In this document: one piece after another, positions 11,186 to 30,901 of the stretch
How the letters are laid out: every line of letters starts with the position of its first letter
Position numbering within the stretch: position 1 is the first letter of the stretch
IMG/VR virus record: IMGVR_UViG_3300027793_000005
Origin: an uncultured virus (IMG/VR IMGVR_UViG_3300027793_000005)
Taxonomy: Duplodnaviria; Heunggongvirae; Uroviricota; Caudoviricetes
DNA length: 64,000 bases
Reading direction: 5' to 3' (one strand)
Position numbers and translations under genes: made by a program
The notes under the pieces: model-generated
What the model was told of the DNA's origin: nothing
Seen by the model: the letters and a program-made list of their open reading frames with translations, nothing else
Databases searched by the model: none

Positions 11186-13731
11186 TCTTCACCTGCGCCT
11201 TTCGGCGGCTGTTGCACCCTCTGACGGGCGGATTCGCGCTGGATCTCGGCGGCTTCCTTCGCCTTACCGATCTCGACACCGAGGCGGACACCCTCGCGAC
11301 TCTGTTCAGCCTTGTGCTTCTGGATGTCCACGCCCATCTGCGCAGCCTGAAGTTGCTGCCGACCGGAGTTCTCAGCCCTACGAAGGTCGAGTTCATCAGC
11401 CTTGGCCGCTGCATCGAGCAAGTCCTTCTGCTGCTTGCGCTGCTGTTCAGCCTGCTTGATCTGCGCGTCGATCTGCATCTGCTGGGCCTTGGTCCGCGCC
11501 ACCAACTCCTTGATCTGGAGGTCCATCATCTGCATCTGGACGAGCGGGTCCTGTGCCTGCTGCTGAGCCTGCGCGGCCTGCGCTTCGGCCTGATCCTTCT
11601 GCAAGACACGCGCTGCGGCGGCGGCGACGAGCGGAGAGAGTTGCGCCTCGAACTCAGGCGGCAGGTCGTACTCCTCCTGATCATCCTGCGGCAGGGGCGG
11701 CAGAGCAGCGCCCAACTGCTTCTCGATCTCACGGCGGTACTGGAACGCCATATGCTCCATGATGTGCGCCTGCAACGAGGCCGTGATCTGCTGCGCCATC
11801 GGGTTCTGCCCGATCGTCTGGGCGATCTTCGGGTCCTGCGCGAGAGCCATGTGGACAGCGATGTGCGCCTCATGGTCTTGGTACATGAACGCCTTCACAG
11901 GCTTGCCCGTCATCACGTCCATGTTCTCGGTGATCGGATCACGCGGCTTGGCGTCATCCGGCAGCGGCACGATCTTGTCGGCGTTCTTGACCCCGAGGGT
12001 CTCGATCATCTGCCTGTGGAGATACGGCAGGTTGTAGATCTGCGGCGCGGTCGAGGAGAGTTGATGCACCGCTTGGTACTGCACGATCTTCTGCGACATC
12101 GTCGCCGCGTTCGGGTCCGACACCGGGATGACATCCACGTTGTCGTAGTCGGCCTTCTTGGCCTTCCGATCGCCCACTTCCGGCTCGTACGAATACTCAT
12201 CCGGGGTGTTGTCACGGATGATGCCCGCAAGCAGTTTGAACTCCTGCTTCATGGCGTAGTAGACACGCGCCTGCACGGCGGTCATCACCTTGAGGACGCG
12301 CTCCAGCACGGCGAGCGTAGTACCGACCGGGGCCTGCGCGGACATGTCCGAGATCTTGAGATCCGACACCGCAGCGAACCTGCGACCGTCCTCCACGATC
12401 TTGTCCATCAGCATCGAGAGGGTCTGGCTCGGCTCCTTGTACGGGAGCGGCAGGATGTTATCGCGGATCGACCCGCTCGGGACATCTACGTCCCTGAACT
12501 CTCCGGGGGAGACCGGGGTGTCATCGCCCTTGATACGCAGGCCGCGTGACTTGAGGCCACCCGGAAGATTGCTGAGAGTGCCTGCATCGACAAGTTGGCG
12601 AAGGATGGAAGTAGCGGCCTTGCTGTGTCCACCGATGAGATGGATGAGGCCGAAATAGTAGAAGCCGAAGCCGGGGATGTACCCGTAGTGGACGAAGTGC
12701 TGTCGCTTCTCCTTGAGTTCATCGTCTTCACGCCAGTTGCGCCGGATGGCGAGGATCGTGTTCGTGCCCTTGTCGATCGTCACCACGTACGGAAGGGCGA
12801 TCCCCGTCTCGTTGTTGTCCTTGTCCACATCCGGGTAACCCGGCAGGTCGAGGTTCACGTGCATCTCAAGAAGCAGGAACCGCTCGTCCATCGTCGCTGA
12901 GAAGCCTTGGTCCTGCGCCTTCTGCTTCTCCACCTCATCGAGGATCTTGACCGGATCGCCTAGGTCGATGTCCCGATAGAACCCGTTGTACTGGAGTTTG
13001 CGCAGTTCGTTCTTCGTCTTGCGCATCCGGTGCGTGACCCGGTCCGCCGCCTCAAGGCTCGACGCCCCATAGGGCACGACGATGTCCTCAGCCGGGATAT
13101 ACACCGCCGTCTGGCGGTTGAGCGAGGGGTCGAAGTAGACTTTCTTGAAGGCGTTGCCCGAGAGAGACAGCGAGAGGAGCAGGCGCTCATGCTCAGGCCG
13201 GTACTCCTTCATCTTCTCGGTCAACTGATAGTTCATGTCCTCCGCAACGCGGATCGCAGCGTCCTTCTTCTCCGGGGTCTCCTTGCCGATGATCTTGGCC
13301 TTGACCGGGCCTGCCGCCGGGAAGGTCTCCATGATGGTCTCGGACTGGAACTTGACCGCCGATTCCATCAGGAGGGGGTGGTTGACCCCGCATGCACGCG
13401 GCCACGGCTCGGTGCGCTCTTCGTACTTGATGCCGAGGATCTTGAGGCCATCCACGTAGGTGTCGAGCCACTCCTTGCGCGAAGCGATGTCTTGGTCGTA
13501 GAACCCGCCCAACTCGGTGGCGAGGCCCTGCAACTCACCCTCGCTCATGTACTCGGCAAGATTCGCATCGAAGTCCTCCGCCCGAGGCTCATCCTTCATC
13601 AACTCGATTATGGCCCCGTCGATGCCGATCGACACTGCCTCCGGGTCCTCGATCTGGATGTCGATGGCTGGCTCGGGAGACAGGGCGTCAAGCCCCATCG
13701 GCGCTTCGTAGAGACTCTTGTCGATGGCCAT
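11182..13731 (-). CDS. Portal protein with Q-rich coiled-coil C-terminal extension
   Basis: Follows TerL; SR.EW...Y..GL..LG, HP.L.E....FQ, G.AFKKVY.D, GFY..GLIH motifs; 849 aa. Confidence 0.88.
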   Translation of the reverse strand: MAIDKSLYEAPMGLDALSPEPAIDIQIEDPEAVSIGIDGAIIELMKDEPRAEDFDANLAEYMSEGELQGLATELGGFYDQDIASRKEWLDTYVDGLKILGIKYEERTEPWPRACGVNHPLLMESAVKFQSETIMETFPAAGPVKAKIIGKETPEKKDAAIRVAEDMNYQLTEKMKEYRPEHERLLLSLSLSGNAFKKVYFDPSLNRQTAVYIPAEDIVVPYGASSLEAADRVTHRMRKTKNELRKLQYNGFYRDIDLGDPVKILDEVEKQKAQDQGFSATMDERFLLLEMHVNLDLPGYPDVDKDNNETGIALPYVVTIDKGTNTILAIRRNWREDDELKEKRQHFVHYGYIPGFGFYYFGLIHLIGGHSKAATSILRQLVDAGTLSNLPGGLKSRGLRIKGDDTPVSPGEFRDVDVPSGSIRDNILPLPYKEPSQTLSMLMDKIVEDGRRFAAVSDLKISDMSAQAPVGTTLAVLERVLKVMTAVQARVYYAMKQEFKLLAGIIRDNTPDEYSYEPEVGDRKAKKADYDNVDVIPVSDPNAATMSQKIVQYQAVHQLSSTAPQIYNLPYLHRQMIETLGVKNADKIVPLPDDAKPRDPITENMDVMTGKPVKAFMYQDHEAHIAVHMALAQDPKIAQTIGQNPMAQQITASLQAHIMEHMAFQYRREIEKQLGAALPPLPQDDQEEYDLPPEFEAQLSPLVAAAAARVLQKDQAEAQAAQAQQQAQDPLVQMQMMDLQIKELVARTKAQQMQIDAQIKQAEQQRKQQKDLLDAAAKADELDLRRAENSGRQQLQAAQMGVDIQKHKAEQSREGVRLGVEIGKAKEAAEIQRESARQRVQQPPKGAGEE

Positions 13732-15242
13732 CAGTAGTAACCCTCACGTCTATGACTCTTGAACCATTTCACTGGCTCCGGCTCGTCGCTCGGCAATCGG
13801 ATGAACCCTCCTTGCCTGAACCGGATCAGGGCGAGGGTCGTCGCGTCAACCAAGTCGTCGTGGGTACCCGAGGGGAAATCGTTGCATTCCTCAACTACCT
13901 CCCAAGCCCAACGGCGATCCGGTGTCCAGACTATACCTGAGTGGAACAGATCTGACACAGCATTCACTCGGCTGATCTTGTCCTGTCCCTTGCCCGGCGT
14001 GAACTCAGCCACCGGGACGCCCATCCGGCGCATCTCCTGATAGAGCGCTGCACCGTTCGACTTCTTCTCGACCACGAAGGTGTCGGGTTGCCAATCCTTG
14101 TACTCCTCCAAGACCCGCTGTTTCAGTTCAGGGAACTCAAGGCGCTCCTTGATCGCGTTCAGGAGGATGATGTTGTAGTTCTTGGTCTCCTCGTTGAAGA
14201 ACACCCCCCAAGTCAGGAGGGCGTTGTAGTCCGAGCGGTTGGTCTTCTCTTGTGCAGCGTCGAGCGTCATTATGATGTGCTCGCACGGAGGGGGGTCCTC
14301 CTTCTCCCACACCCGCCACCACTCACGCTTGATGAGGGCACCCTCCTCAGAGGTCGGCTGCTGCATGTACTGGGCCTGCCAGTATCGCACGTCCATCGAG
14401 GCTTTCTTGGCGAGCAACTCATCGATGCCCCAGAACTCGGGCCAGAGCGGCTTCTCGTTGAGAATGGCCGGAAACTCGATGACCTCCCACTGATCAGCCC
14501 CGTCTTCACGGGTCATGTGGTCCACGATCTTGCCGGTGAGGTCGGATTTGCTCCAACGGGTCATCACGACGATGATCGAACCACCCGGCATCAGTCGCTG
14601 GACGGGTCCTGACTGGAACCACTCCCACGCTGGCTCAAATACGTCCGCACGTCCCTGTTTAGCGTCTTGCTCAGAGTGAGGATCATCAATAATAAAAAGG
14701 TCGGCACCGCGACCAGCAAGAGCGCCGCCGACGCCAATAGCAAAGTACTCTCCGTTAAAATTAGTACCCCAACGAGAAGCGCTTTTGGAGTCTGCTTGGA
14801 GTTCAACTTGCGGGAAAATGTCACGATAAGACTCCGAACCGACGAGGTTACGCACCCGGCGACCGAAGTTCACCGCAAGATCAGCGGTGTGGGACGCCAT
14901 GATGACCTTTTTATGCGGATTTTTGCCTAAAAACCACGCCGGAGCGAGGTACGAGATCATCTCGGACTTGCCATGACGCGGAGCGATGTTGACGATCACC
15001 CTTTTCTTGCGTCCGGCCTCGATATCTTCAAAGATTTTGCCCAATTTCCGGTGGTGCGGGCCTACTTTGTACCCCGGATAGACGTGCTGGATGAAGTCGA
15101 GGAAGGAATCCTTGCCCAGTTTCTGCGTGACCTGCGTCTGATACTGCTTCAGGAGGTCAGCGACACGTCGTTTGTCCTTCTCTGACATGGAAGGCAGCGC
15201 ATTTTTGAGCGTTTGGACCTTTTCAGGCGTCAGTTGCAACAC
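13731..15242 (-). CDS. terL: Terminase large subunit
   Basis: Walker A variant NIAPRHGKSE, GRGADLFIIDDPH, coupling motif VMTRW, RNase H nuclease with HDDLVDA; likely GTG start 15242 (track start 15278). Confidence 0.93.
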   Translation of the reverse strand: MLQLTPEKVQTLKNALPSMSEKDKRRVADLLKQYQTQVTQKLGKDSFLDFIQHVYPGYKVGPHHRKLGKIFEDIEAGRKKRVIVNIAPRHGKSEMISYLAPAWFLGKNPHKKVIMASHTADLAVNFGRRVRNLVGSESYRDIFPQVELQADSKSASRWGTNFNGEYFAIGVGGALAGRGADLFIIDDPHSEQDAKQGRADVFEPAWEWFQSGPVQRLMPGGSIIVVMTRWSKSDLTGKIVDHMTREDGADQWEVIEFPAILNEKPLWPEFWGIDELLAKKASMDVRYWQAQYMQQPTSEEGALIKREWWRVWEKEDPPPCEHIIMTLDAAQEKTNRSDYNALLTWGVFFNEETKNYNIILLNAIKERLEFPELKQRVLEEYKDWQPDTFVVEKKSNGAALYQEMRRMGVPVAEFTPGKGQDKISRVNAVSDLFHSGIVWTPDRRWAWEVVEECNDFPSGTHDDLVDATTLALIRFRQGGFIRLPSDEPEPVKWFKSHRREGYY

Positions 15243-15777
15243 TTTTCTCGCCCACGACCCTGTATTCGATGCCCTCAAGCACCGTCAGCAACTCCTTCTC
15301 GACCTCTTCGATCGGCTTGATCTGCACCGTCATCTCGGTACGCTTCTTGAAGGCGTCGATCCCGTCTACTTCACCAAGTTTCGCAAGTGCTGCGATGCGG
15401 GTCTTGCTGTTGTCAGCCTTCTCAGCCTCTTCAAAAAGCCTGTTGATGACGTAGAGTTTCAGTTGCGCAAGGTCATCCACGATCATGTGGTTGTACCGCG
15501 CAGCCATCCCAGCCAGCATGGCGATCGTTTCGTTCGGGTACTTGCTGTAGTCGATCCGCGTATGCGGGTCTTCAAGTTGGGCACGGGCCAGAGCCTTCGC
15601 CTGCTCCATGTCCTCCTCGTTCGCAAGCAGCGGAATCCCCGTCAGTTCGGAGACAAGCCGGATGGTCCTCGCCCTCATCTCAACTTCCGCTTCGGGAGTG
15701 AGGTCCGGCAAGGCATCTGCTGCGTTGGCAGGGAGCGGTACGTTCTCTTCTATCTCAGGTATCAACACATCGTGCAT
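15223..15777 (-). CDS. Putative terminase small subunit
   Basis: First gene of the late operon directly upstream of terL; helical; RI.AL..LG...GIDAF motif. Confidence 0.6.
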   Translation of the reverse strand: MHDVLIPEIEENVPLPANAADALPDLTPEAEVEMRARTIRLVSELTGIPLLANEEDMEQAKALARAQLEDPHTRIDYSKYPNETIAMLAGMAARYNHMIVDDLAQLKLYVINRLFEEAEKADNSKTRIAALAKLGEVDGIDAFKKRTEMTVQIKPIEEVEKELLTVLEGIEYRVVGEKSVATDA

Positions 15778-16071: not shown

Positions 16072-16087
16072 CGTATTAGGTAATACG
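16072..16087. promoter_or_regulatory. Palindromic box CGTATT-AGGT-AATACG upstream of promoter P1
   Basis: One of about 16 copies of the motif. Confidence 0.8.
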
Positions 16088-16125
16088 CTGTTGCGAAAAT
16101 ACATCGAAAAAAGTCTAGCGGATGC

Positions 16126-16153
16126 GGAACTAATCCCGCCCCGGCCTGTCCAA
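16126..16153 (+). promoter_or_regulatory. ECF/sigmaE-like promoter P1 (GGAAC-N17-GTCCAA)
   Basis: Matches RpoE-type -35/-10; duplicated at 17770-17797; lies ~45 nt before ATG 16200. Confidence 0.6.
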
Positions 16154-16199
16154 TCTACTGTAACCAACAACAACGCGCTACGGCGCACAGGAGATTACG

Positions 16200-16808
16200 A
16201 TGCTCGACTACGCTATCACCCTCGGCTATCTCAACGAGGTCGCCGCCGGTCAGTCCGGTGCGGCTATCGCCCGCGACGCGCTCCGCAAGGCCATTCCGGG
16301 CTACTTCCCGGACGCGCCGACGGTCGCCGCCATCAAGGCCACCACGGACTCGGAGGCGTGGCAGGACTTCGACGGCAAGGCTCGCCGCATCTTCGCGGTC
16401 GCGTGGACAACCGCGCCCCGCATGGTGAAGTTCGCCGCTGACGGCGAGGCCGAGTCCTACACGCCGACCGGTTCCGACCTCGACCTCTGGGTGGCGGACA
16501 AGGCGACCGCTAAGGCATACGACCCGCGCCAGACCGCCATCCGCAAGGCCATGCAAGCCTATGTCCGGGTGTCCGTGAAGCAGAACATCGCGGACTTCAT
16601 CCCGGAGGCCATCGATGCGGTCGAGGCGGATAAGGCTCCGGCCTTGCCTGACCCGGTTAAGGTTCTGGCGATGGTGGACGCCGCGCTCGTCATCCTGTCC
16701 GAGCATGACAACAAGGCCGCGCTGGCCTTGCTGAACGGGTTGGATGCTCTCGTCACGGTCTGCCGCAAGCCTCTTTCGGAGGGCAAGGCGCTGAAGGCGA
16801 AAGCCTAA
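16200..16808 (+). CDS. First early gene, Ala-rich hypothetical protein, monocistronic
   Basis: AGGAG RBS, strong codon bias, own promoter and terminator, palindromic boxes on both sides. Confidence 0.8.
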   Translation: MLDYAITLGYLNEVAAGQSGAAIARDALRKAIPGYFPDAPTVAAIKATTDSEAWQDFDGKARRIFAVAWTTAPRMVKFAADGEAESYTPTGSDLDLWVADKATAKAYDPRQTAIRKAMQAYVRVSVKQNIADFIPEAIDAVEADKAPALPDPVKVLAMVDAALVILSEHDNKAALALLNGLDALVTVCRKPLSEGKALKAKA

Positions 16809-16816
16809 CGGCCTAG

Positions 16817-16832
16817 CGTATTAGGTAATACG
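16817..16832. promoter_or_regulatory. Palindromic box CGTATT-AGGT-AATACG
   Basis: Identical 18-mer to 16071-16088. Confidence 0.8.
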
Positions 16833-16834
16833 CG

Positions 16835-16865
16835 ACCCCTGCTAGGGCAACCTAGCGGGGGTTTT
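16835..16865 (+). terminator. Rho-independent terminator
   Basis: ACCCCTGCTAGG-GCAA-CCTAGCGGGGGT followed by TTT. Confidence 0.85.
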
Positions 16866-16925
16866 GCCGTTCTCGCCCCCCCTCGCGGCTCGGCTCGGCT
16901 CTCCTGACCCTCCGGGTCAGTCGAG

Positions 16926-17001
16926 GCCAGTTCCTTGTCGGATGCCAGTTCTCTAGGCGATGCCAGTTCTACGAAGCCAGTTCTTAGTGCGAAGCCAGTT
17001 C
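16926..17001 (+). repeat. Five iteron-like GCCAGTTC repeats (spacing 18,18,14,18)
   Basis: Copies at 16926, 16944, 16962, 16976, 16994; a sixth at 17677. Confidence 0.85.
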
Positions 17002-17015
17002 CCGTTGGGCGAGCG

Positions 17016-17110
17016 TCGATCCTTAATCCCCCAAAACGATAACGTGACTTATAGAGAGTTTATCGAAGCCTTGTGAGTCTCAGCATCGATTCTTAATCCC
17101 CCAAAACGAT
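17016..17110 (+). repeat. Direct repeat TCGAT(C/T)CTTAATCCCCCAAAACGAT, two copies
   Basis: 17016-17040 and 17086-17110. Confidence 0.85.
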
Positions 17111-17648
17111 GGATAATGCCCGTTTGTTCCAGAAAATAGTGCCAGTTTGTTCCATTTGTTCCAAGCGAATTCTTTGGTTGGAACAAAATATGTCGTTGAT
17201 TTATATAGCAAAAGTGGCACTTTGTTCCATTTGTTCCAATGTTCCAAAAATAGGCTAGAGGGGAGGAAGGGCAAGGGGCGAGGAGCAGCATCATTCTGGG
17301 CCATCTTTAATGACGTATAAGCACTGGGTCACTTTCCCCGTTATACCCTATTTTCCACTATGCGTGGAACAAGCCCTTTTTTGACCCTCTACTACTACTA
17401 CTACTATAAAATAATATCAATATCTTCTTCTTCTTCTCTACAAAATCAACGACTTGCGAAACCACCCCTCCGCTCGACCACTCCCAATTTTGAAGAATAA
17501 GTTCCGTTACGATTTTGGAACACTTGGAACAAATGGAACAAACGAGCATTATCCTGTCAAAACTTGGAACAACCGTATTATCTAATACCGTCAGAATCTA
17601 TCTAGCCGTTGGAACACTTGGAACAAATGGAACAAACGGGCATTATCC
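17111..17648. repeat. Origin-like region: inverted arrays of TGGAACA repeats around an AT-rich core
   Basis: Perfect 21-bp inverted repeat 17111-17131/17628-17648; 40-bp direct repeat 17515-17554/17609-17648 (1 mismatch); (CTA)n and (CTT)n tracts. Confidence 0.75.
17444..17456 (+). promoter_or_regulatory. IHF consensus site AATCAA-CGAC-TTG
   Basis: Exact WATCAR-N4-TTR with upstream AT tract; near-inverted copy around 17189-17201. Confidence 0.6.
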
Positions 17649-17717
17649 CTTGCCCCCACCTCGATGCTACAACGATGCCAGTTCTATAACGCTGGCGGAT
17701 CTATAACGCTGCCCGAC

Positions 17718-17733
17718 CGTATTACCCAATACG
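17718..17733. promoter_or_regulatory. Palindromic box CGTATT-ACCC-AATACG upstream of promoter P2
   Basis: Similar spacing to promoter as at P1 (36 vs 38 nt). Confidence 0.8.
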
Positions 17734-17769
17734 CTGTTCGGGAATCACGACGATTTTCCACCGATTCAC

Positions 17770-17797
17770 GGAACCTTTCCCGGTCTGGCCTGTCTAA
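17770..17797 (+). promoter_or_regulatory. ECF/sigmaE-like promoter P2 (GGAAC-N17-GTCTAA)
   Basis: Duplicate of P1, including the TCCCG and GGCCTGTC segments. Confidence 0.6.
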
Positions 17798-17800
17798 CTA

Positions 17801-18404
17801 TGTAGGACGGACAGGAACGGATGGCGCAAGCCGAGCGTATTACCTAATACGCTGCCCGACCCGGAAGTCTCCGATGCCACAAGCCGAAAGCCGGTAGTGG
17901 ACGAAGGCGCGGTGGACAGAGCCGCGACGAGCCGATGGCAAGGTTCGGTGGCCTCATATCAAGAGGTCGAGAGCGCGATATCTCGGGGACGTACTCCCTC
18001 AACGCGACAGGGGCGGACTGTGACAAGTCGCCTAGTAGTCAGCGGCCTGTAAAACCTGTGACCTATCAATCCCATGTAGCGCGTATTACCTAATACGTTC
18101 TGGGTGGGGCGGGAGCAGGGGGGCAACTGCGGAACCCCGGTATGTGGATTGTAAAACCGGACGTAGACGCAGGGTACGGCAAGCGCGATGAACGGCTAGA
18201 TGGTCTGCCCCGCAGCCGATACGGGTGGGCAACATACACCCGGCAGCGTTAGGGACATGAGGCTACGTATTACGCAATACGCCAAGCCGTCCCGAGTATC
18301 TGCCTACAACTGCTGTGAAGCCGTCATCCGACGAGTGAGCAGCCTAGCGGTGATGGTGTGGTTAGTTAGATTCTTGAATGGTCTGACTACTGCGCCGTCA
18401 CCGC
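17801..18404 (+). ncRNA. Candidate large structured ncRNA or structured leader (~500-600 nt)
   Basis: No credible ORF. More than 12 consecutive hairpins; 5' TGTAGG-A-CGGA pairs with TCTG-CCTACA at 18299-18308; starts at predicted TSS of P2; long terminal hairpin 18347-18404. Confidence 0.55.
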
Positions 18405-18447
18405 GTGGGTGTTTATTCGCATCAACCAAACCAAGAGGTACTACATC

Positions 18448-18678
18448 ATGCGCAGCACCAAGCAGCCGAACCTGAACTTCGACATCTACATCAAGCACCC
18501 GCGAGGAACCGGGGTCATCCGCATCCCGTCCGAACTCCTCTGTCTCCCGCGCAGTCAGCACTACGCCTTCCTGCGTTCCCGGTTCAGCGACCCCCGCAAG
18601 GTCATGCGGCTCTACACGGTCGCCAAGCATCTCAACATCCTGAGCGGACTCGGCCAGATGCACCGCATCGAGGCGTGA
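18448..18678 (+). CDS. Early hypothetical protein
   Basis: ATG 18448 with AAGAGG RBS. Confidence 0.7.
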   Translation: MRSTKQPNLNFDIYIKHPRGTGVIRIPSELLCLPRSQHYAFLRSRFSDPRKVMRLYTVAKHLNILSGLGQMHRIEA

Positions 18679-18896
18679 GCGGCGTGGGTTCTATGTGGTG
18701 CGTGGCCTGTCAGTTGGAGCAGGTCGCCGCCAAGCGTGTCGAGGCGGGATACATAACCTGCCTACGCTGTGGCGAGGCCGATGCACGCAAGCGCAAGCAC
18801 ACGGTAGTCCCGATGCACAAGGGGAACTACATCGTGGTGACCGACAGGACACTACTAGCCCAGATAACGCGCCCCGGTCGGGGGAGCAACCACTAG
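18675..18896 (+). CDS. DksA/TraR-type C4 zinc-finger protein
   Basis: CVAC-x(7)-KR-x(6)-TCLRC; GTGA overlap start (alternative ATG 18693). Confidence 0.6.
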   Translation: MSGVGSMWCVACQLEQVAAKRVEAGYITCLRCGEADARKRKHTVVPMHKGNYIVVTDRTLLAQITRPGRGSNH

Positions 18897-18921
18897 CGTA
18901 TTAGCCAATACGGAGAGCGAC

Positions 18922-19332
18922 ATGAACGACGATGACAAGAAGCCGAAGATCAGCATGTTCGATGAGAAGGGGGGTGCGCGTCTTGGCGACCTCTTGAAGG
19001 GCAAGTACCGCCCGTCCCTCCGGGAGTTCATCCACCCCGAGACCATCGCGCTGACTTGGGTGGAGGGCGTGACCGTCTCGACGGTGAACCTCAACGACAT
19101 GGCGCGGGATGTGAACGGCGTGTCTTCCTTCCCGTACGAGACCTGCCTGTTCTACGAGGACACGGACAAGCCGAGCGAGGTCATCGGGCGTTACGCCACA
19201 CCCCTCATCGCCTTGAACGACCACATCTACACGGTCAACAGGATTTTGGACGAGGGGCGCAAGCGCCGCGCCGCGCTCAAGATCCAGATGCAGTACCGCC
19301 TCCAGAAGAAGCGCGAAGACGGTAACGAGTGA
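18922..19332 (+). CDS. Early hypothetical protein
   Basis: Palindrome 18897-18912 fused to GGAG RBS; STV...YET..F motif. Confidence 0.75.
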   Translation: MNDDDKKPKISMFDEKGGARLGDLLKGKYRPSLREFIHPETIALTWVEGVTVSTVNLNDMARDVNGVSSFPYETCLFYEDTDKPSEVIGRYATPLIALNDHIYTVNRILDEGRKRRAALKIQMQYRLQKKREDGNE

Positions 19333-19358
19333 GAGTATTAACCAATACGGAGAACGAC

Positions 19359-19607
19359 ATGGACACGAAAATCATACCGAACAGCACTTACACCATCGGG
19401 TACATCAGCGACACCATTGGCGATGCCGACGCGAGTTGGGACGAGGTGACCGTCCTCGCCACGCTCAACAACGACACGGCCAAGATGGACGCATTGGAGT
19501 TCTGGAAATTGGTGAATTACATGATCGGGTTCTATTCGAGCGCACTCAAGCGCGACGATATCCGCGCCTACCCCCGACAGGACACGCCGGACACCGTGGA
19601 GGTGTGA
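19359..19607 (+). CDS. Early hypothetical protein
   Basis: Palindrome 19334-19349 plus GGAG RBS point to ATG 19359. Confidence 0.7.
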   Translation: MDTKIIPNSTYTIGYISDTIGDADASWDEVTVLATLNNDTAKMDALEFWKLVNYMIGFYSSALKRDDIRAYPRQDTPDTVEV

Positions 19608-19608
19608 C

Positions 19609-19980
19609 ATGCCCGTACTGGACACGACCGAAGACACCATCGAGGTGTGGTGTCTCACGGAACGGTATGAGGAGTTGGAGGAAGCCCAACAGTCCGGGAT
19701 GATGCAGCCGGGTGAGGTCGAGGAGATGCTATCGCTGCTGAGCGTACTCGATAACATCAAGAGTAAGAGCGGCGATGTGAAATGGCGGGGCGATTGGTAT
19801 CCCGACCTGCTTGTGCGGGACTCGCACTACAAGAGTTACATACAAGAACTTCTGCATGACTGCGGCGACATGCCGACCCTGCCGACCTACATCGTCGTGG
19901 ACTGGGACGCGACCATAGCGAACTTGCAAGGCGACTGGACGTCCATCGACATCGACGGCGTGACTTATTGGTATCGCTGA
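19609..19980 (+). CDS. Acidic protein, ArdA-like antirestriction candidate
   Basis: Very acidic; C-terminal YI.VDWDA....L..DW...DG..Y resembles the ArdA C-terminal domain. Confidence 0.45.
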   Translation: MPVLDTTEDTIEVWCLTERYEELEEAQQSGMMQPGEVEEMLSLLSVLDNIKSKSGDVKWRGDWYPDLLVRDSHYKSYIQELLHDCGDMPTLPTYIVVDWDATIANLQGDWTSIDIDGVTYWYR

Positions 19981-20012
19981 ATCGTCAGCGTATTGACTAA
20001 TACGGAGGACAT

Positions 20013-20165
20013 ATGGAACGCAGACAGGTTCACCTGACCGAGCAGGAGACGGAGTTGCTGATGGACTTCATCGTGCATCACGTCAATCGCGGATACATGT
20101 GGGGGCTGGTACATGGTGCGCTCGCCGCGCTGACTGGCGCGTATGCCTACATCGTGTTTTTCTAA
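20013..20165 (+). CDS. 50-aa protein with C-terminal hydrophobic helix
   Basis: Not in track; palindrome 19989-20004 plus GGAGG RBS; MERRQVHLTEQETELL...YAYIVFF. Confidence 0.7.
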   Translation: MERRQVHLTEQETELLMDFIVHHVNRGYMWGLVHGALAALTGAYAYIVFF

Positions 20166-20177
20166 GGAGGTCTGAAC

Positions 20178-20588
20178 ATGGCTTACAAGAAGTACGCCCG
20201 TGAGTGCGACGAGTGCGGCAAGGGCATGAACGAGGGCTACTGCATAGACGGTGGCATGGCCTATTACTGCTCCGACGAGTGCTTGCACAAGGACATCACC
20301 CCCGACGAGTGGAAGGAGATGACCGACGACGAGGAGAGCGACTCGTACTGGACGACATGGGACGAAGACCCCGACGAGTACATGGTGGACGAGGCCGACC
20401 CCGCGCCGAACAAGTTGAGTGTGCCGATGGGGAGTGTGCCTGTTTGGGTAAACCGCGATTTCATCGAAGCGGTCAGGCTCGCATTCGCCAGAGAACTGCG
20501 TGACCGAAGTCTCGACCCCGACAAGTACGAGTTCGTCAACTGGACTGTGACCTGCGATGTGCAGATCAAAGAGGAGGACAAGACATGA
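20178..20588 (+). CDS. Acidic zinc-finger protein (CDECG...YCSDEC...YWT.W)
   Basis: AAGGAGG RBS, Cys motif. Confidence 0.75.
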   Translation: MAYKKYARECDECGKGMNEGYCIDGGMAYYCSDECLHKDITPDEWKEMTDDEESDSYWTTWDEDPDEYMVDEADPAPNKLSVPMGSVPVWVNRDFIEAVRLAFARELRDRSLDPDKYEFVNWTVTCDVQIKEEDKT

Positions 20589-20791
20589 GCGAAGAATTGT
20601 TGGATGCTTTGTACGAGGCGGCATATCGGCTGCTCTCTGCGTACCGGATGCTCGATGCAATCTGCAAAAACGATGAAGCAGACCCGCTAGGCGTAAGTGC
20701 CGACCGCATCAAGGCACGGGATAACGCATGGGACGCTTACATAGCGGCGAAAAAAATGTGGCACAAGCATGCGACGGAGGACAAGGTATGA
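20585..20791 (+). CDS. Hypothetical protein
   Basis: ATGA coupling, GGAGG RBS. Confidence 0.7.
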   Translation: MSEELLDALYEAAYRLLSAYRMLDAICKNDEADPLGVSADRIKARDNAWDAYIAAKKMWHKHATEDKV

Positions 20792-20991
20792 ACCCGAAAG
20801 AACCCTTCCACATCACCATCCGGTGGTACATCGCGGATGTGAAGCAAGTGCGCCCCGACCTGACCGATGACCAAGCACAAGCGGTGCTTCAGCGCATACA
20901 CCTCACCCACGATGCCAACGAGGGCGTGAATTGGGATGTCATCGAGTACACCGCACAAGATATGTATCCGAGACTGAGGTACAAGGCGTGA
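20788..20991 (+). CDS. Hypothetical protein (W...DV...RPDLTDDQA..VL......HDA..GVNWDVI)
   Basis: ATG 20788 coupled; recurrent phage motif. Confidence 0.7.
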   Translation: MNPKEPFHITIRWYIADVKQVRPDLTDDQAQAVLQRIHLTHDANEGVNWDVIEYTAQDMYPRLRYKA

Positions 20992-21272
20992 CCGTGAACT
21001 ACATGATCATCAAGCAAGAGGACTTCGACCCCGACAACCTGCCTGACGAGGGCTGTCTGAGTGAGGTCATCCTCGACTGGGACAGATACGGCAGGAATGA
21101 GGACGACGAATGGATAGCCAAGGGGGAGTGCAACTATTTCCTCTGGCGTAATACGGAAGTGCCGGACAAGTTCGTGCTGTGCGTGAATGTCTGGTACCAC
21201 CCGCCCCATGACGAGGATGACGATGACTATCCCTATGTGGTGCAGTATCTGGAAGTGGAGGTGCAATCGTGA
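20988..21272 (+). CDS. Acidic hypothetical protein
   Basis: GTGA coupling. Confidence 0.6.
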   Translation: MTVNYMIIKQEDFDPDNLPDEGCLSEVILDWDRYGRNEDDEWIAKGECNYFLWRNTEVPDKFVLCVNVWYHPPHDEDDDDYPYVVQYLEVEVQS

Positions 21273-21475
21273 ACGAGAAGACACGCGAGAGAGCCGATGT
21301 CGAATTGATATACAGCCTTGACGAGTTGTACGGATGCCCACTGGGGTTCGATGAGATTGTCATCGAGACCGTCCGGCAAAACCTTGAGGACATGGGCAAA
21401 GACCCGGACGACTACGAGTTGGGGCCGGTGCAAGTGCTATGCGTGGTGACACTTAAAGATAAGGGAAAGACATGA
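21269..21475 (+). CDS. Hypothetical protein
   Basis: GGAGG RBS, coupling. Confidence 0.65.
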   Translation: MNEKTRERADVELIYSLDELYGCPLGFDEIVIETVRQNLEDMGKDPDDYELGPVQVLCVVTLKDKGKT

Positions 21476-21681
21476 AGAAGATAGAGGACACGGTCGAGAG
21501 TCTCACGCGAGAACTTGAGATATCTGTGCGCCGACATGCCCAACTGTGGAACCAATACCGGGAGATCGAGTCCAAGATATACACGGAGAACGCATGGCAG
21601 AGACACGTGCGTAACCGACTGAACGTTTTGAATGGTAGACAACCCAACATCGTATTACCTAATACGGAGGATGAGCGATGA
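21472..21681 (+). CDS. Hypothetical coiled-coil protein
   Basis: Coupled ORF; 3' end contains palindrome 21651-21666. Confidence 0.6.
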   Translation: MKKIEDTVESLTRELEISVRRHAQLWNQYREIESKIYTENAWQRHVRNRLNVLNGRQPNIVLPNTEDER

Positions 21682-22610
21682 ACATCGAAGTGAACGAGAC
21701 GCAGACCGCTGACGAGTTGCTGACCAAGCCGAACCACATCGTATCGCTTGCATCGTCATGCGTGCTGGTGTCGATCGAGAGCCATGTGTGGAACGCCACC
21801 GTGCAAGATCGTGGCATCAGCGAGGAGGTCACGAACGCGAAGCAAGCCGACCGGGACGCTGGCAGGTTCATCAAGAACCTTCTCGCCAAGAACCCCGAAC
21901 ACAAGGCGGTGCTGAACTATCGACAGGCCATCTATAATTGGTCGCAGCGATGCACGTATGACTGGGCGGGATCGCAACGCCTACTGCCCGTCATCAACTT
22001 GGCTCGGTTCCACACGGAGTATCAGGAACACGTCAAGCGGTTCCATGAGTTGGTGGATGACTTCTTGGACAAGTACCCGTCCATCGTGTCCAACATGGCC
22101 TTCGTGCAGGGTGCGATGTTCGACCGGGCGCAGTACCCCGACGTGTCCGAGTTGCGCGGTAGGTTCTCCATCGACCTGATCCAGAGCGAGGTTCCGACCG
22201 GGGACTTCCGCTGTGCCATCGCGGTGGACTTGGCTGATGATATGGCGAAGCACTATCAGCGTCAGGCTAAGCGTCTGGTCGAGGACATCCTCAACAAGCA
22301 GACCACGCAGTTGGTCGAGATCATGCAGTCCATCTCGTACTGCTGTGAGACCGAGACCACCATCGACGAGAAGGGTGAGGTCAAAGTCCGGCGTCGGAAG
22401 TTGTACGACTCCACGTTGGAGCGTGCCCGTGAACTGTGCCAGACCTTCAAGGGGTTCAACCTGACGGCAGACCCGCGCCTTGAGGAAGCGCGTGTGAAGT
22501 TGGAGACGCTGCTTGGCGACCTGACCATCGAGCAACTGCGGAACTCCGATGCCAAGCGCATCGTGGTGAAAGAGAGCATCGATGACATCCTGAGCAAGTT
22601 CGGTATCTGA
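21678..22610 (+). CDS. DUF3150-like helical protein
   Basis: AGRF.K.LL, T..W.....RLLP, F...YP, YP...EL..RF motifs; upstream of MoxR/vWA pair. Confidence 0.6.
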   Translation: MNIEVNETQTADELLTKPNHIVSLASSCVLVSIESHVWNATVQDRGISEEVTNAKQADRDAGRFIKNLLAKNPEHKAVLNYRQAIYNWSQRCTYDWAGSQRLLPVINLARFHTEYQEHVKRFHELVDDFLDKYPSIVSNMAFVQGAMFDRAQYPDVSELRGRFSIDLIQSEVPTGDFRCAIAVDLADDMAKHYQRQAKRLVEDILNKQTTQLVEIMQSISYCCETETTIDEKGEVKVRRRKLYDSTLERARELCQTFKGFNLTADPRLEEARVKLETLLGDLTIEQLRNSDAKRIVVKESIDDILSKFGI

Positions 22611-22645
22611 CAGAAGCGTATTAACCAATACTGAGAGGTAGTGAT

Positions 22646-23722
22646 ATGGCTATTCAGATCAATGACCCTGTCGAGTTGAGCGACGTCCCCAACCTGATCA
22701 TGACGGTCGGGCGTGAGGTGACTGTCGTGCTGAAGGGTGAGCCGGGTATCGGCAAGTCGAGCGTGTTGAAGGAGTTGGAGCGGCTGTATGGCGACAAGTA
22801 CGACTACGTATACGTGGACTGTCCGGTGATGGACTTGTCCGACATCGTGATGCGTATCCCGAACCACGGCAGCAAGACTCTGGAGGCGTACGTCTCCTCG
22901 CTGTTCAAGTTCGACAGCCCGAAGCCGAAGATCGTCATGCTCGATGAGTTCATGAAGACGAACAAACTGCTTCAGACTTTGTTCACTCGGCTGATGCTGG
23001 AGCGTACCGTAGGCGATGCGGCGCTGCCGCCCGGCTCTATCGTGTTCGCCACGTCCAACCATTCGTCGGACGGGGTGGGCGATGCGATGCTCGCCCATGC
23101 TGGCAACCGCGTGATGATCATCAACGTGGACAAGCCCCGGCATGTGAAGTGGAACCTGTGGGCATCGCAGCATGGCATCTCAGCCAAGATCCGCGCATGG
23201 GTCGCCATGAACCCCCGGTGTCTCGCGTCCTACCTCGACGGTGGGCAGGATGACAACGAGTTGATCTTCAATCCGGCACGTCGTGGGGTGCTGTCTGTTG
23301 TCACGCCCCGATCGCTTGCGAAGGTGAACGTGGTGGTCGAGAACCACGACAAGTTGGGCCGTGCTGTGGCTAAGGCGGCTCTGGCTGGTACCTGTGGCGC
23401 AGCGTTCGCCAATTCGTTCGATGCGTTCCTGACCCTCGACAAGGCGTTGACCCCGGTCAAGAACATCATCGCTGACCCGGAGGGAGTGCTAGTGCCGGAG
23501 AACCCGGCGGCTCTGTTCCTCACCATGTTCAATGCGGTCGATGTCATCGAGACTCAGGATGATCTGAGCAACTTCATGAAGTTCGTCAACCGCATCCGGT
23601 CTGAGGAAGTGCAGGAGTGCTTCTTCACGATGTCGTTGCAGGGCCGCATCAGCCGCCTTGCCAGTCGGAACGATGCCATCAAGCAGTGGGGCATGAAGAA
23701 CCTTGAACTCATGATGCCGTAA
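22646..23722 (+). CDS. MoxR-like AAA+ ATPase
   Basis: Walker A GEPGIGKS, Walker B MLDEF, sensor ATSN, TPRS. Confidence 0.85.
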   Translation: MAIQINDPVELSDVPNLIMTVGREVTVVLKGEPGIGKSSVLKELERLYGDKYDYVYVDCPVMDLSDIVMRIPNHGSKTLEAYVSSLFKFDSPKPKIVMLDEFMKTNKLLQTLFTRLMLERTVGDAALPPGSIVFATSNHSSDGVGDAMLAHAGNRVMIINVDKPRHVKWNLWASQHGISAKIRAWVAMNPRCLASYLDGGQDDNELIFNPARRGVLSVVTPRSLAKVNVVVENHDKLGRAVAKAALAGTCGAAFANSFDAFLTLDKALTPVKNIIADPEGVLVPENPAALFLTMFNAVDVIETQDDLSNFMKFVNRIRSEEVQECFFTMSLQGRISRLASRNDAIKQWGMKNLELMMP

Positions 23723-23736
23723 GGAGTCATACCAAC

Positions 23737-24933
23737 ATGAACGCAGTACTTAAACAGGCGAGCATGGAGGTGCGTCTGAAGAAGGCGCACATCCGGTTGA
23801 TCAAGCACCCCGAGACCTGCCTGTACGGTGGGGTCATCCTGATGGGCGAGACGAGCGTGGTCGATGACCCGGCGGCTTGCCCGACCGCATACACGGACGG
23901 ATACAACAAGCGATACGGGCGAGCGTTCCTTGAGCGGCTGACCGATGCCGAGGTAGCAGGTCTGGTCTTGCATGAGAACCTGCACGTCATGATGAAACAT
24001 ATCCCGCGACACCGGGATTTGATGAAGGAGAACGGCAGGCTTGCGAACATGGCGATGGACTACGCCGTGAACGACATCATCCAAGATCTGCATCTCAGTC
24101 ATCCGGCGTTGGTCAAGTTGGGGGATGGGTGGCTGTACGACCCGATGTTCAAGGGCTGGTCTGTCCGGCGTATTTACGAATACTTGAAGCAGGAGCAGGA
24201 GGGTGGCGGTGGTGGTGGTGGCGGCGGGCGTGGCGATGCGCTTGACGAACATGATGGCAGCAGCCACGACGAGATGACCGAGGCTCAGCAAGAGCAGGCC
24301 AAGCGCGATGTCGATGATGCCATCCATCAAGGCGGCATCCTCGCTGGCAAGTTCGGTGCCAAGATCCCGCGTCAAGTCAAGGACATGATGGCTCCTCCGG
24401 TGGACTGGCGCGAGGCTCTACGTGAGTTCTGGGGTGCATATGCACGGGGCGCGGACGAGTTGACGTGGCGCAGGTTCAACAAGCACCGGGTGGCCGACGA
24501 TCATTTCTTGCCATCACTCATCAACGAGACTGTCGGTGAGGTGGTACTGCCGATCGATACGTCTGGCTCCATCAGCAACGATGACATCGGACGTGTGGCT
24601 GCTTGTATCCAAGAACTGTGCGACATCGTGACCCCTGAGCGCATCCGTGTGCTGTGGTGGGATACGCACGTGCATGGTGAGCAGGTGTTCGAGGGTGACT
24701 ATACGAACCTGAAGAACCTGCTCAAGCCGATGGGCGGTGGCGGCACTCGCGTGGGCTGTGTCAGCGAGTACATCATCGAGAGAGACATCAAGGCCGACTG
24801 CATGATCGTGTTCACGGACGGCTACGTCGAGGGCAACATCAACTGGAAGACCAACGTGCCGACGCTGTGGTTGGTCAAGGGCAACAGACACTTTACGCCG
24901 CCTTCGGGCAGCGTGATCAACGTGGAGGATTGA
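23737..24933 (+). CDS. Metallopeptidase (DUF2201-like) plus vWA domain protein
   Basis: TAYTDG, HENLH (HExxH), N.A.D..VN; MIDAS DTSGSI, GGGGT, FTDG. Confidence 0.85.
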   Translation: MNAVLKQASMEVRLKKAHIRLIKHPETCLYGGVILMGETSVVDDPAACPTAYTDGYNKRYGRAFLERLTDAEVAGLVLHENLHVMMKHIPRHRDLMKENGRLANMAMDYAVNDIIQDLHLSHPALVKLGDGWLYDPMFKGWSVRRIYEYLKQEQEGGGGGGGGGRGDALDEHDGSSHDEMTEAQQEQAKRDVDDAIHQGGILAGKFGAKIPRQVKDMMAPPVDWREALREFWGAYARGADELTWRRFNKHRVADDHFLPSLINETVGEVVLPIDTSGSISNDDIGRVAACIQELCDIVTPERIRVLWWDTHVHGEQVFEGDYTNLKNLLKPMGGGGTRVGCVSEYIIERDIKADCMIVFTDGYVEGNINWKTNVPTLWLVKGNRHFTPPSGSVINVED

Positions 24934-24936
24934 GTT

Positions 24937-25107
24937 ATGAGCGACAAGAAGCGAGTCATCATCACCATCAGAGGTGGCATCCCCGAGATCATCGAGGCAC
25001 CGGACGGTGTCGATGTCGAGATACGGGACTATGACACCGAGTGGTATCCCAAGGACGAGTTGGAAGAAGACGAAGACGGCGACAAGTATTTTCCGAGGAG
25101 TGGTTGA
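24937..25107 (+). CDS. 56-aa acidic protein (V.I.IRGG......P.GVDVEIRDYD)
   Basis: Not in track; GGAGG RBS. Confidence 0.65.
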   Translation: MSDKKRVIITIRGGIPEIIEAPDGVDVEIRDYDTEWYPKDELEEDEDGDKYFPRSG

Positions 25108-25109
25108 GT

Positions 25110-25283
25110 ATGAAGACCTACGAAGTGACCATCCGTGCGACCGTTATCAAGACGCTGAAGGTCGAGGCCAAGGACGCAGACACTGCGAACATCATAGCGC
25201 GTGAGGAGTTCTCCGTACTGAACACGGGGGACGATGAAGACTACGACGAGGAAACTTTGGATATTCAGGAGGTGAAGCCGTGA
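25110..25283 (+). CDS. DpnD/PcfM-like small protein (MKTYEV.I......VEA.D...A)
   Basis: Motif; ATG 25110 with AGGAG RBS. Confidence 0.55.
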   Translation: MKTYEVTIRATVIKTLKVEAKDADTANIIAREEFSVLNTGDDEDYDEETLDIQEVKP

Positions 25284-25513
25284 GCAACACCAAGTACATC
25301 ACTCGCACCAAGGCCGAGGAGTTGACCCGTGGGTACATCAACTGCATGAACTTCATCTACTGGGAGATCGTGAACAACAAGGGCGATATGGAGTTAGTTC
25401 TCAAGCCCGGAAGGTGGATTGTCATGAAGCACTACCTCGCACGACCTGTCTTTCTCAAGGTCGAGAAGGACATGACCCTGACCGAATACTATGTGAAGGA
25501 GGACGAAACATGA
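25280..25513 (+). CDS. Hypothetical protein
   Basis: Starts in GGAGGTGAAGCCGTGA linker. Confidence 0.65.
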   Translation: MSNTKYITRTKAEELTRGYINCMNFIYWEIVNNKGDMELVLKPGRWIVMKHYLARPVFLKVEKDMTLTEYYVKEDET

Positions 25514-25701
25514 GCGAGAAAAAATGTATCGCTTGCGGCGAAAGTTCTACGCAACTTATCGACTTTGGATTTGGGGGGTTGATGCTATGCCAAGCGTGTG
25601 ATGACCACGGCAAGCAGATGGAAAACTTTATCAAGGATGGCATTGAGTTGAAATACTCCGATGGCACCAAAGAGATAATCAAAGAGGAGATCAAGTCATG
25701 A
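25510..25701 (+). CDS. Small zinc-finger protein (CIACG...CQAC)
   Basis: ATG 25510 coupled, RBS. Confidence 0.65.
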   Translation: MSEKKCIACGESSTQLIDFGFGGLMLCQACDDHGKQMENFIKDGIELKYSDGTKEIIKEEIKS

Positions 25702-26135
25702 CCAACAAGACCTATACGAGCGTCATCGACACCGAAGTCTATGACAACGGGATGGACTACCTTGACGTGAACATCTACGTCACCTGCCCTGACGGCAGCG
25801 AGTGGCGCAAGACTCTCAGCCTGAACAAGAGGAGTGGGGCGTTGGATGGCTCAGTCATCTGCTATTCCGAGGGCAAAGATTATTCCTTTGAGGAAGCAAC
25901 GGAGAACCCGTCTACTCTCGTATCCCTCATATTCAACGAACGGTTTGACGAAGCCGCCACCCTGCTCAAGGAAGCGTACAGACGACAGACCAGCGTGAAA
26001 GACCACGCCGAGGAGATGTTGAAGACATTGAAGTCAGCCGTCTGGATGCTTGAGCGCGATTTCATCGATCCGCAGAAGTTGACGGTGATTGAAAAATGTC
26101 ATGCCACCATCAACAAGGTCGAGGGGAGGAAGTGA
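25698..26135 (+). CDS. Hypothetical protein
   Basis: Coupled ORF with RBS. Confidence 0.65.
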   Translation: MTNKTYTSVIDTEVYDNGMDYLDVNIYVTCPDGSEWRKTLSLNKRSGALDGSVICYSEGKDYSFEEATENPSTLVSLIFNERFDEAATLLKEAYRRQTSVKDHAEEMLKTLKSAVWMLERDFIDPQKLTVIEKCHATINKVEGRK

Positions 26136-26302
26136 TGAACAAGGATTACATACCGGGATACACGGACTACACCATCACGTTCACGATGCATGCTGGTGGT
26201 CTCTCCAAGGAGTTGGTCGAACTTGACCTGCTCGAATATTTGGAAGAGTGCGTCAAGAACAAAGATGTATCAGCGTTCAAATTCATAGAGGATGAGAAGT
26301 GA
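26132..26302 (+). CDS. Hypothetical protein
   Basis: GTGATG start overlapping the upstream stop. Confidence 0.55.
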   Translation: MMNKDYIPGYTDYTITFTMHAGGLSKELVELDLLEYLEECVKNKDVSAFKFIEDEK

Positions 26303-26303
26303 C

Positions 26304-26501
26304 ATGAAGACCCTATGCCTTCCACCACGCACCAAGTTCTACGGATGGGACTACAACACCGACAAGCAACTGCGGATGACGGGCAAGGAGTGGCATGTGT
26401 ACGCCAAGCGCGGGGAGTTCAAGACGGAGCATGGCTCCGACTCCGCATGGGGCGGCAGGGTCGAGGTGTGGCTCGACGGTACGGATCAACACAAACGCTA
26501 A
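26304..26501 (+). CDS. Hypothetical protein
   Basis: ATG 26304 right after the upstream stop. Confidence 0.55.
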   Translation: MKTLCLPPRTKFYGWDYNTDKQLRMTGKEWHVYAKRGEFKTEHGSDSAWGGRVEVWLDGTDQHKR

Positions 26502-26512
26502 GAGGTATAGAT

Positions 26513-27496: not shown

Positions 27497-27499
27497 GTC

Positions 27500-27844: not shown

Positions 27845-27885
27845 GTACAGCGTATTAAATAATACGCTGCGCTACATGAGGGAAC

Positions 27886-28771: not shown

Positions 28772-28783
28772 GGAGGATTCACT

Positions 28784-29023: not shown

Positions 29024-29024
29024 C

Positions 29025-30900: not shown

Positions 30901-30901
30901 C

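Follow-up and report, generated by a model that had tools for sequence, protein, structure and literature searches.

We report here that positions 17801-18420 on the plus strand of IMG/VR record IMGVR_UViG_3300027793_000005, a 64-kb stretch of DNA referred to as the window in the rest of the text, are a structured non-coding RNA of roughly 620 nt in an uncultured freshwater phage, at the point where its early genes begin. The ends given are presumptive, being placed at the promoter and at the last conserved pairs. The element is almost certainly a genuine structured RNA of a family that is not in Rfam. A preliminary description, made from the letters of the window, had proposed an unrecognised large structured RNA at this place, and the proposal is borne out by covariation among homologues, strand-specific folding, a lack of coding constraint, the promoters in front of the element, its presence in RNA libraries and the lack of any Rfam match. 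The folded RNA carries at its helix tips a short palindrome, referred to here as the box, that also stands before the Shine-Dalgarno (SD) sites of early genes. The complete statement, in which this new family of large structured RNA would also scaffold or titrate a factor that recognises the box, is possible rather than probable.

The window is a phage genome in which an early and replication block of 25 kb runs on the plus strand from 18448, while capsid genes, portal-side genes and the large terminase gene (13731-15278) form a block on the minus strand. The RNA lies in the 1.64-kb gap between these two divergent blocks and, as the preliminary description had noted, no credible open reading frame (ORF) is found from 17801 up to the ATG at 18448. 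By its terminase the phage is nearest to HTVC023P-type pelagiphages and a few lake phages among deposited genomes, at about 50% identity, and it is a freshwater phage related to the HTVC023P-type podophages.

Homologues were gathered from public viral and metagenome contigs using the box, two core motifs and one nearly identical record, and then with an nhmmer profile, which found full-length copies in 88 loci representing 37 distinct sequences of 497-682 nt. Since exact motifs were used for the collection, their invariance is partly a product of its construction and more distant members would be missed. A search with an independent motif from another helix led back to the same 33 contigs of IMG/VR, and no sequence was added. 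Nucleotide similarity among the relatives begins at the -35 element of the promoter and ends at about 18353-18367, and the gene that follows the RNA is conserved at the DNA level only in the closest relative.

The preliminary description had suggested covariation and folding energy against shuffled controls as checks on the RNA, and both came out in its favour. RNAalifold folded the alignment of the 37 sequences into 73 pairs, 39 of which show double changes, compared to 22.6±2.2 in shuffles (none of 500 as high), and 98.7% of the alignment cells at these pairs are paired, compared to 88.2% in shuffles. When the partners were slid by 1-3 columns, only 4-9 double-change pairs and 34-47% pairing were left. 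A pseudoknot-like unit adds double changes at 7 of its 12 pairs, bringing the overall count to about 46 covarying pairs. At least 15 helices, this unit among them, are preserved by compensatory change. On the plus strand, the minimum free energy of 17801-18404 is -255.1 kcal/mol compared to -227.3±5.9 kcal/mol for shuffled sequences (z = -4.75, none of 20 shuffles as good), whereas its reverse complement gives z = -0.53. Two divergent homologues gave z = -5.45 and -5.06, and a coding control of 604 nt gave z = +0.78. Open frames vary among the homologues in strand, frame and place, and no ORF is conserved. Indel runs relative to the window equal 1 modulo 3 in 111 of 118 cases in the 5' core and in 109 of 149 in the 3' core; indels therefore break every reading frame, which argues against any protein-coding constraint. 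Long unpaired stretches of the RNA are invariant, and one of its domains is absent from some members.

Searches of known families and genomes returned nothing that resembles the element. Rfam 15 gave no match at gathering thresholds anywhere in the 64-kb window, be it to GOLLD, ROOL, HEARO, OLE or raiA, or to group I and II introns, RNase P, tmRNA, 6S RNA, riboswitches or leaders; in E-value mode over 16700-18700, the best score was 18 bits against a threshold of 49, with all E-values at or above 2.5. ARAGORN predicted neither a tRNA nor a tmRNA. No match to the 1.65-kb region was obtained by blastn against 50,697 deposited phage records, and the two cores gave only chance-level matches to deposited phages, inside coding genes (E of at least 0.7). 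A motif scan of 185,579 prokaryotic genomes found no copy. A covariance model of the 5' core, run over HTVC023P, HTVC027P, 023Pt_psg01, DSL-LC04 and MinM2, reached 11.4 bits at best, with no credible match.

The architecture of the RNA is given here from 5' to 3', all features being on the plus strand. The small hairpin GGC-GCAA-GCC at 17823-17832 is plausible: GGY-GNRA-GCC is found in 26 of the 37 homologues with a GCAA, GCGA or GUAA loop, its stem shows no double change, and RNAalifold chose a long-range alternative that shows none either. Next comes the box-1 hairpin (17834-17853, box at 17836-17851), which forms helix 2 and has double changes at five of five pairs because the box type differs between lineages. 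Helix H3 (17877-86/17892-900, conserved AAAGC loop) has double changes at five of its eight pairs and H4 (17908-17926, conserved loop UGGACAGAG) at three of six, with 100% of cells paired in both. They are followed by H5 (17928-17947, loop GAUGGCAA), which has double changes at five of six pairs, one of them with four pair types, and by H6 (17950-17968, conserved loop with UAUCAAG), with three of five and 99.5% of cells paired. The pseudoknot-like unit spans 17969-18006 and consists of HA (17969-71/17982-84), PK (17974-77/18003-06) and Hb (17985-89/17995-99). Its cells are paired at 97.9%, none of 500 shuffles has as many double-change pairs, and sliding the partners leaves 0-2 of them. One PK pair occurs as CG in 19 homologues, GC in 11, UA in 5 and AU in 2. 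HA, PK and Hb were spotted by reading the alignment, RNAalifold having missed all three.

Two long-range helices, H7 (18010-14/18207-11) and H8 (18019-21/18200-02), with double changes at four of five and three of three pairs, respectively, organise the region 18010-18211. They enclose an invariant GACAAGUCG, GUAAAA, the box-2 hairpin (box at 18082-18097) and an optional G-rich central domain. The distance that they enclose is 183-208 nt in 15 homologues (long form) and 100-138 nt in the other 22 (short form); 18115-18218 lies in the domain present in only these 15 of the 37. The sequence TGTAAAACC does occur twice, at 18048 and 18150, as described earlier. On the 3' side, H9 (18223-18241, GGGUG-GGCAACAUA-CACCC) has double changes at three of five pairs with 100% of cells paired. 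H10 pairs GGCAG (18242-46) with CUGCC (18300-04); it never varies and is therefore uninformative. Inside it lie H11 (18253-55/18290-92, double changes at two of three pairs) and the box-3 hairpin (box at 18266-18281), which is replaced in some homologues by a hairpin that is not a perfect palindrome. The 3' element H12 (18333-18418) is a long G-U-rich hairpin formed by 18344-55/18396-407 and the pairs inward of it, with 18 pairs, six of them with double changes, and 99.1% of cells paired. It is extended by pairing of GAGUGAGCA (18333-41) with the U-rich UGUUUAUU (18410-18).

Most of the local hairpins in the preliminary description (17834-53, 17908-26, 17931-49, 17950-68, 17968-85, 17986-98, 18222-42, 18252-93 and 18347-18404) match covarying helices in the 37 homologues. 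The local hairpin at 18012-32 gives way to H7, and those proposed within 18115-18218 are candidates in the domain that only 15 of the 37 homologues have. The helix said to close the whole domain, 17801-11 with 18299-308, is not supported as a conserved feature: it shows no covariation, its cells are paired at 81%, a level that 292 of 500 shuffles reach as well, and it competes with the invariant H10. A smaller form of this pairing may provide an alternative fold, as the invariant UCUGCC could pair either with GGCAG in H10 or with a conserved CGGA near the 5' end; the four CGGA/UCUG pairs are kept in 100, 100, 89 and 100% of cells, and their changes are all one-sided.

ECF (extracytoplasmic function)/sigmaE promoters are characterised by a GGAAC -35 element and a TCTAA-like -10 element spaced by 16-17 nt. 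GGAACC and GTCTAA, 17 nt apart at 17770-17797, fit this consensus and constitute a predicted promoter, of the sigmaE-like kind named in the preliminary description, that stops 4 nt before the modelled RNA start. The pattern GGAAC-N17-GTCTAA matches three times in the 64-kb window compared to 0.25 expected. An ECF-like GGAAC-N17-[GC]TCTAA precedes 33 of the 37 homologues, ending 2-4 nt before the aligned start, and the remaining four have at the same place TTGACT-N17-TATAAT, a perfect sigma-70 consensus. A promoter consensus, as a match of sequence, thus lies directly upstream of all 37 copies, and the occurrence of two unrelated promoter types before one conserved element suggests that the element itself is what is transcribed. 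The phage seems, from these motifs, to use an ECF-type promoter for its first genes; no gene for a sigma factor or an RNA polymerase was recognised among the window proteins scanned. Two further ECF-like motifs occur in the window, GGAAC-N16-GTCAAA at 17535-17561, within the right-hand array of a repeat region described below, and GGAACTAATCCCG...GTCCAA at 16127-16155, ahead of a 202-aa gene. Matches to a sigma-70-like promoter number 4 in 18400-38300, fewer than the 9.5±2.8 of shuffles, a scarcity that fits one long early transcription unit.

Contigs from four freshwater metatranscriptome runs of four studies, with no difference from the window, together span 17780-18349 (17812-18226; 17780-18206; 17815-18190; 17815-18081 with 18056-18225; and 18199-18349). 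They place the element in RNA libraries, where the preliminary description had suggested looking for a discrete RNA; contigs give neither ends nor strand nor level, and such libraries can hold DNA. The three contigs that begin at 17812-17815 are a weak hint of a nearby 5' end. A gap at 18350-18555 in most runs carries no meaning, and relative depth in contigs is not usable.

The RNA is an accessory insert that is absent from most close relatives. IMG/VR holds at least 598 terminase relatives, from which 80 loci were kept, 24 of them with at least 3.3 kb of upstream DNA. Among these 24, nhmmer found the RNA in three (L044, L027 and L023), and the 5'-core covariance model found the same three among 22 loci searched, the others scoring at most 12.8 bits and not at the expected place. 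Synteny is otherwise kept between RNA-bearing and RNA-less relatives. The junction is visible in the RNA-less locus L051, which has the same ECF-like promoter and a 5' start that includes ACGGA, joined immediately to the 3' hairpin and its U-rich tail; the downstream leader and genes are unchanged, and the core of roughly 500 nt is absent.

The box, CGTATTANNTAATACG, occurs 14 times in the 64-kb window with at most two mismatches, compared to 0.03 copies expected, and all copies fall within 16072-38548. Three are inside the RNA, at 17836 and 18082 without mismatch and at 18266 with one. The preliminary description had counted the same three; as a general feature the number does not hold, as homologues have one to four box positions in the RNA. 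Box 1 is the sole position found in all 37, with the lineage's own palindrome at an offset of 35-59. Another copy lies 37 nt upstream of the -35 element (17718-17733), and most homologues likewise have a box at -75 to -131 from the RNA start. Five copies abut SD sites of early genes between 18897 and 22632 (18897-912, 19334-49, 19989-20004, 21651-66 and 22617-32): GAGA, GAGG or GAGAGG follows directly, and the start codon lies 8-13 nt past the box. Further boxes stand upstream of the 202-aa gene (16200-16808, no known family) and after its stop codon, before a terminator-like hairpin. These two flanking boxes have a GG centre, in the opposite orientation to most; the hairpin, seen by eye at 16836-16861 with TTTT (region 16072-16866), follows the gene.

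Four box types occur among the homologues, CGTATTA, CGTATCA, GCCATTA/GCCACTA with a 2-nt centre, and TCCTGAC with a 3-nt centre. Each of these four lineages carries its own type both in its RNA and before its downstream SD sites, the box-then-SD layout being seen with the other three types in relatives as well, which supports the link between RNA and box that the preliminary description had surmised. In locus L198, all three box positions of the RNA have changed in concert to the CGTATCA form. The box centre is biased by strand: among 132 distinct sites, AC occurs 40 times compared to 2 for GT, CC 34 compared to 2 for GG, and AG 26 compared to 6 for CT (100 compared to 10 in total), and position 7/10 is A/C 17 times and G/T twice. 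Since a symmetric DNA site should ignore strand, this bias leans towards a box that is read on the transcript. An extra box hairpin is inserted in the HA loop at L097 (550-738, minus strand), and L168 (1364-2018, minus strand) has in the alignment an extra box-like sequence at position 3; from both variants it seems that further helix tips can be colonised by the palindrome.

Because the same box hairpin is found in the RNA and directly 5' of the SD sites of early cistrons, we propose that both would be bound by one box-recognising factor. The early transcript would open with this RNA over its initial ~620 nt, and the long 3' hairpin may bound or stabilise the RNA. On the tips of its helices the folded core would then expose the box hairpin proper to its lineage, in one to four copies, and, by scaffolding or titrating the factor, would tune the translation or stability of early messages, following the sponge logic of CsrB and RsmZ. 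We put this mechanism forward tentatively. A more far-reaching reading, which we consider distinctly unlikely, is that RNA and box together make up a single post-transcriptional system without a described counterpart in phages. A palindromic hairpin specific to the lineage would then serve as a tag next to the ribosome-binding site of every early cistron, and a dedicated ornate RNA of ~600 nt, made first and in excess, would show the same tags on a rigid core, capture their reader and so time or coordinate early gene expression. Since perfect palindromes are complementary to one another, the RNA could alternatively pair with the tags directly, or RNA copies could join into multimers.

Several observations weigh against the scaffold. 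The conserved core is far larger than a sponge needs, and the invariance of the collection motifs, as stated above, is in part built in. The box count varies from one to four, position 3 is not a perfect palindrome in several homologues, and the extra box of L097 sits in a new helix tip; such variable number and placement would also be expected if boxes were passengers tolerated only at hairpin tips. The strand bias of the box centre is overstated, as related phages share positions and their sites are not independent. Within the main box type the arms are fixed, with 773 of 792 cells in pairs 1-6 being Watson-Crick and no covariation, a pattern equally compatible with a DNA operator and with an RNA hairpin. 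One RNA-library contig begins at 17780, upstream of the predicted start, which disfavours a single sharp start. Finally, no box-binding protein was identified, and no RNA-binding family was found among 62 window proteins searched against Pfam, 29 of which were also searched in PHROGs.

Candidates for a reader or partner were sought among the phage proteins. The 63-aa ORF at 33248-33439 resembles the zinc ribbon of Mu Com, weakly and below the threshold (E = 4.7×10−4, 20 bits compared to a cut-off of 22.9). Com binds an RNA hairpin adjoining a ribosome-binding site, and this ORF is on that account a candidate worth following as the box reader. Another 63-aa protein, which is conserved, has the pattern CxxC...CxxC and is encoded shortly after the RNA, was rejected as the reader: it does not track the box type, being near-identical in L143 (GCCATTA) and L188 (CGTATTA). 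Homologues of the 202-aa gene occur in six of eight RNA-bearing loci with enough flank and, by tblastn, in no RNA-less locus. L051 has at the position of this gene an unrelated-looking 180-aa gene whose C-terminus is similar by eye, and given this similarity the association of the 202-aa gene with the RNA is not established.

The other readings are taken in the order in which they survive. The RNA could be an ornate trans-acting RNA whose function resides in the folded core, either an RNA-only particle or a binder of a host target in early infection, for example for host take-over or anti-defence; boxes would then be passengers, dispersed repeats that persist only at helix tips. We regard this as somewhat unlikely. 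It would account for the large invariant core with its conserved unpaired stretches, GNRA loops and pseudoknot, for the behaviour of the RNA as a present-or-absent module (3 of 24 relatives by nhmmer, 3 of 22 by the covariance model, L051 without the core), for its location behind the first early promoter, and for box number and placement that vary up to the new insertion in L097. It sits less easily with box position 1, where all 37 homologues, with four box types among them, have the box of their own lineage, although gene conversion among repeats could also explain this.

An unlikely reading is that the RNA acts in cis as the leader of the early operon, as a processive antiterminator, attenuator or sensor that would gate passage past the 3' hairpin and U-rich tract. 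In every homologue the RNA does separate the first gene from the only promoter that is visible, and the 3' element, which resembles a hairpin followed by a U-rich tract, was scored as terminator-like by a simple scan; yet 6 nt (GUGGGU) separate the hairpin from UGUUUAUU, which is itself predicted to pair with GAGUGAGCA. The alternative partners of UCUGCC, GGCAG or the 5' CGGA, would permit alternative folds. The core is nevertheless missing from close relatives that share the promoter, the 3' hairpin and the early genes. Terminator-like sites are not enriched in 18400-38300 (20 compared to 15.4±3.7 expected), with no strong one on the plus strand, no riboswitch or leader family was matched, and the ~500-nt core far exceeds known cis antiterminator RNAs such as HK022 put, of about 70 nt. 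Beyond the position of the RNA nothing favours the antitermination leader proposed in the preliminary description.

Very improbable, in our judgement, is an RNA linked to replication that would prime or open a neighbouring origin. ColE1 RNA II is such a structured replication-priming transcript, the 1 kb upstream of the RNA has iteron-like arrays (GCCAGTTC repeats and inverted TGGAACA arrays) around an AT-rich centre, the cumulative GC skew has its minimum at 17001-18000, and the phage encodes a family A DNA polymerase. However, GC skew follows gene direction here and hence cannot by itself locate an origin, transcription heads away from the repeats, relatives retain the repeats in loci that have no RNA, and nothing indicates an RNA-DNA hybrid site. 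The repeat-rich region itself extends over 16900-17660, with GCCAGTTC-containing repeats at 16922-17001, a 29-nt repeat pair at 17012-40/17082-110, and inverted TGGAACA arrays at 17111-17251 and 17512-17648 that flank an AT-rich centre near 17390-17440. The RNA-less L051 has the same upstream repeats. This region could be an origin or a divergent control region.

Finally, it is hardly credible that there is no functional RNA and that conservation stems from DNA-level sites, such as box-repressor operators and promoter elements, or from a small protein gene: perfect 7-2-7 palindromes with fixed arms do resemble protein-dimer operators and one box lies upstream of the promoter, but 46 pairs outside any box logic show double changes that preserve pairing, G-U pairs are conserved, the folding advantage is confined to one strand, and every reading frame is broken by indels with no ORF conserved.

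The genes around the RNA complete this picture. The first downstream ORFs on the plus strand are a 76-aa ORF (18448-18678), whose product retrieved no relatives when used as search bait, and the gene for the CxxC protein (18705-18896), which matches neither Pfam nor PHROGs. The latter gene takes first or second place among the early genes. It comes after the RNA in all 25 loci whose downstream DNA extends to at least 600 nt, and is also present in 4 of 17 RNA-less relatives checked (L010, L019, L051 and L080). Besides the DNA polymerase, the early block includes an SNF2 helicase and a DUF927 primase-helicase. At 22646-24933, a gene for an AAA_5-type ATPase is followed by one for a DUF2201 protein (putative metallopeptidase and VWA-like domain), which PHROGs labels as an HNH endonuclease. 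A second minus-strand block includes a large polyvalent protein of 2607 aa (43122-50945) with an ART-PolyVal ADP-ribosyltransferase domain and an LPD39 domain.

Literature searches found no description of this RNA, which we consider to be a new, previously undescribed family of large structured phage RNA. To our knowledge, few bacterial or phage RNA classes longer than about 400 nt are both well supported and of unknown function, and each of them has led to new biochemistry. Here the comparative support is unusually clean, with 37 distinct sequences and about 46 covarying pairs, and the source is a group of abundant uncultured freshwater phages whose RNA is seen in environmental RNA libraries.

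Comparison with known systems sets the RNA apart from each of them. In the CsrB/RsmZ sponges a short hairpin motif is repeated several times and recurs at the SD regions of their targets, and the motif of our RNA, in its four lineage-specific types, is likewise multicopy and present at such sites. The box is, however, a lineage-specific palindrome of 16-18 nt that adjoins the SD site, whereas the Csr/Rsm motif is a GGA loop that overlaps it; in addition, the large conserved core would be superfluous for a sponge, and no binding protein was identified among the window proteins. The HK022 put RNAs and EAR are cis-acting processive antiterminators that resemble the RNA in being structured and in lying directly downstream of an early promoter, ahead of a long operon. 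In size our RNA exceeds put roughly eightfold, its core is missing from relatives that run this operon, and downstream terminator-like sites are not enriched. The box, rather than the RNA core, recalls the intercistronic hairpins of phage early operons, namely T7 RNase III sites and T4-type PeSL cassettes, as it is a repeated stem-loop between early cistrons. Its stem of only 6-8 bp is short for RNase III and, unlike those hairpins, it abuts the SD site, is a perfect lineage-specific palindrome and is also found within a structured RNA.

A survey of structured RNAs in IMG/VR used the same data and, like our analysis, covariation; the candidates it describes average 67 nt, and single hairpins of our RNA could be among them (Fremin et al. 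2023, PMC10690425). The two core motifs were not found in six of its supplement files, and fragments may be listed in three others. A paper on HTVC023P-type genomes makes no mention, in the text covered by a term search, of intergenic or non-coding features, promoters, sigma factors or RNA polymerase (PMC9599517).

The nearest parallels are ROOL and GOLLD, large ornate RNAs of phages and prophages that share with our RNA a length of several hundred nt, many covarying helices, a phage-borne location and a patchy distribution. Multimeric assemblies are reported for both (bioRxiv 10.1101/2024.12.08.627333). It matches neither Rfam model, lies in the early-operon leader of a lytic-looking freshwater phage and displays at its helix tips the genome's own palindrome. 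As far as we know, ROOL and GOLLD lack two handles that this RNA offers, a defined position as the opening element of an early operon and a lineage-specific hairpin shared with the translation starts of early genes. Both handles open direct experiments, for which the natural presence and absence variants among close relatives are ready comparisons.

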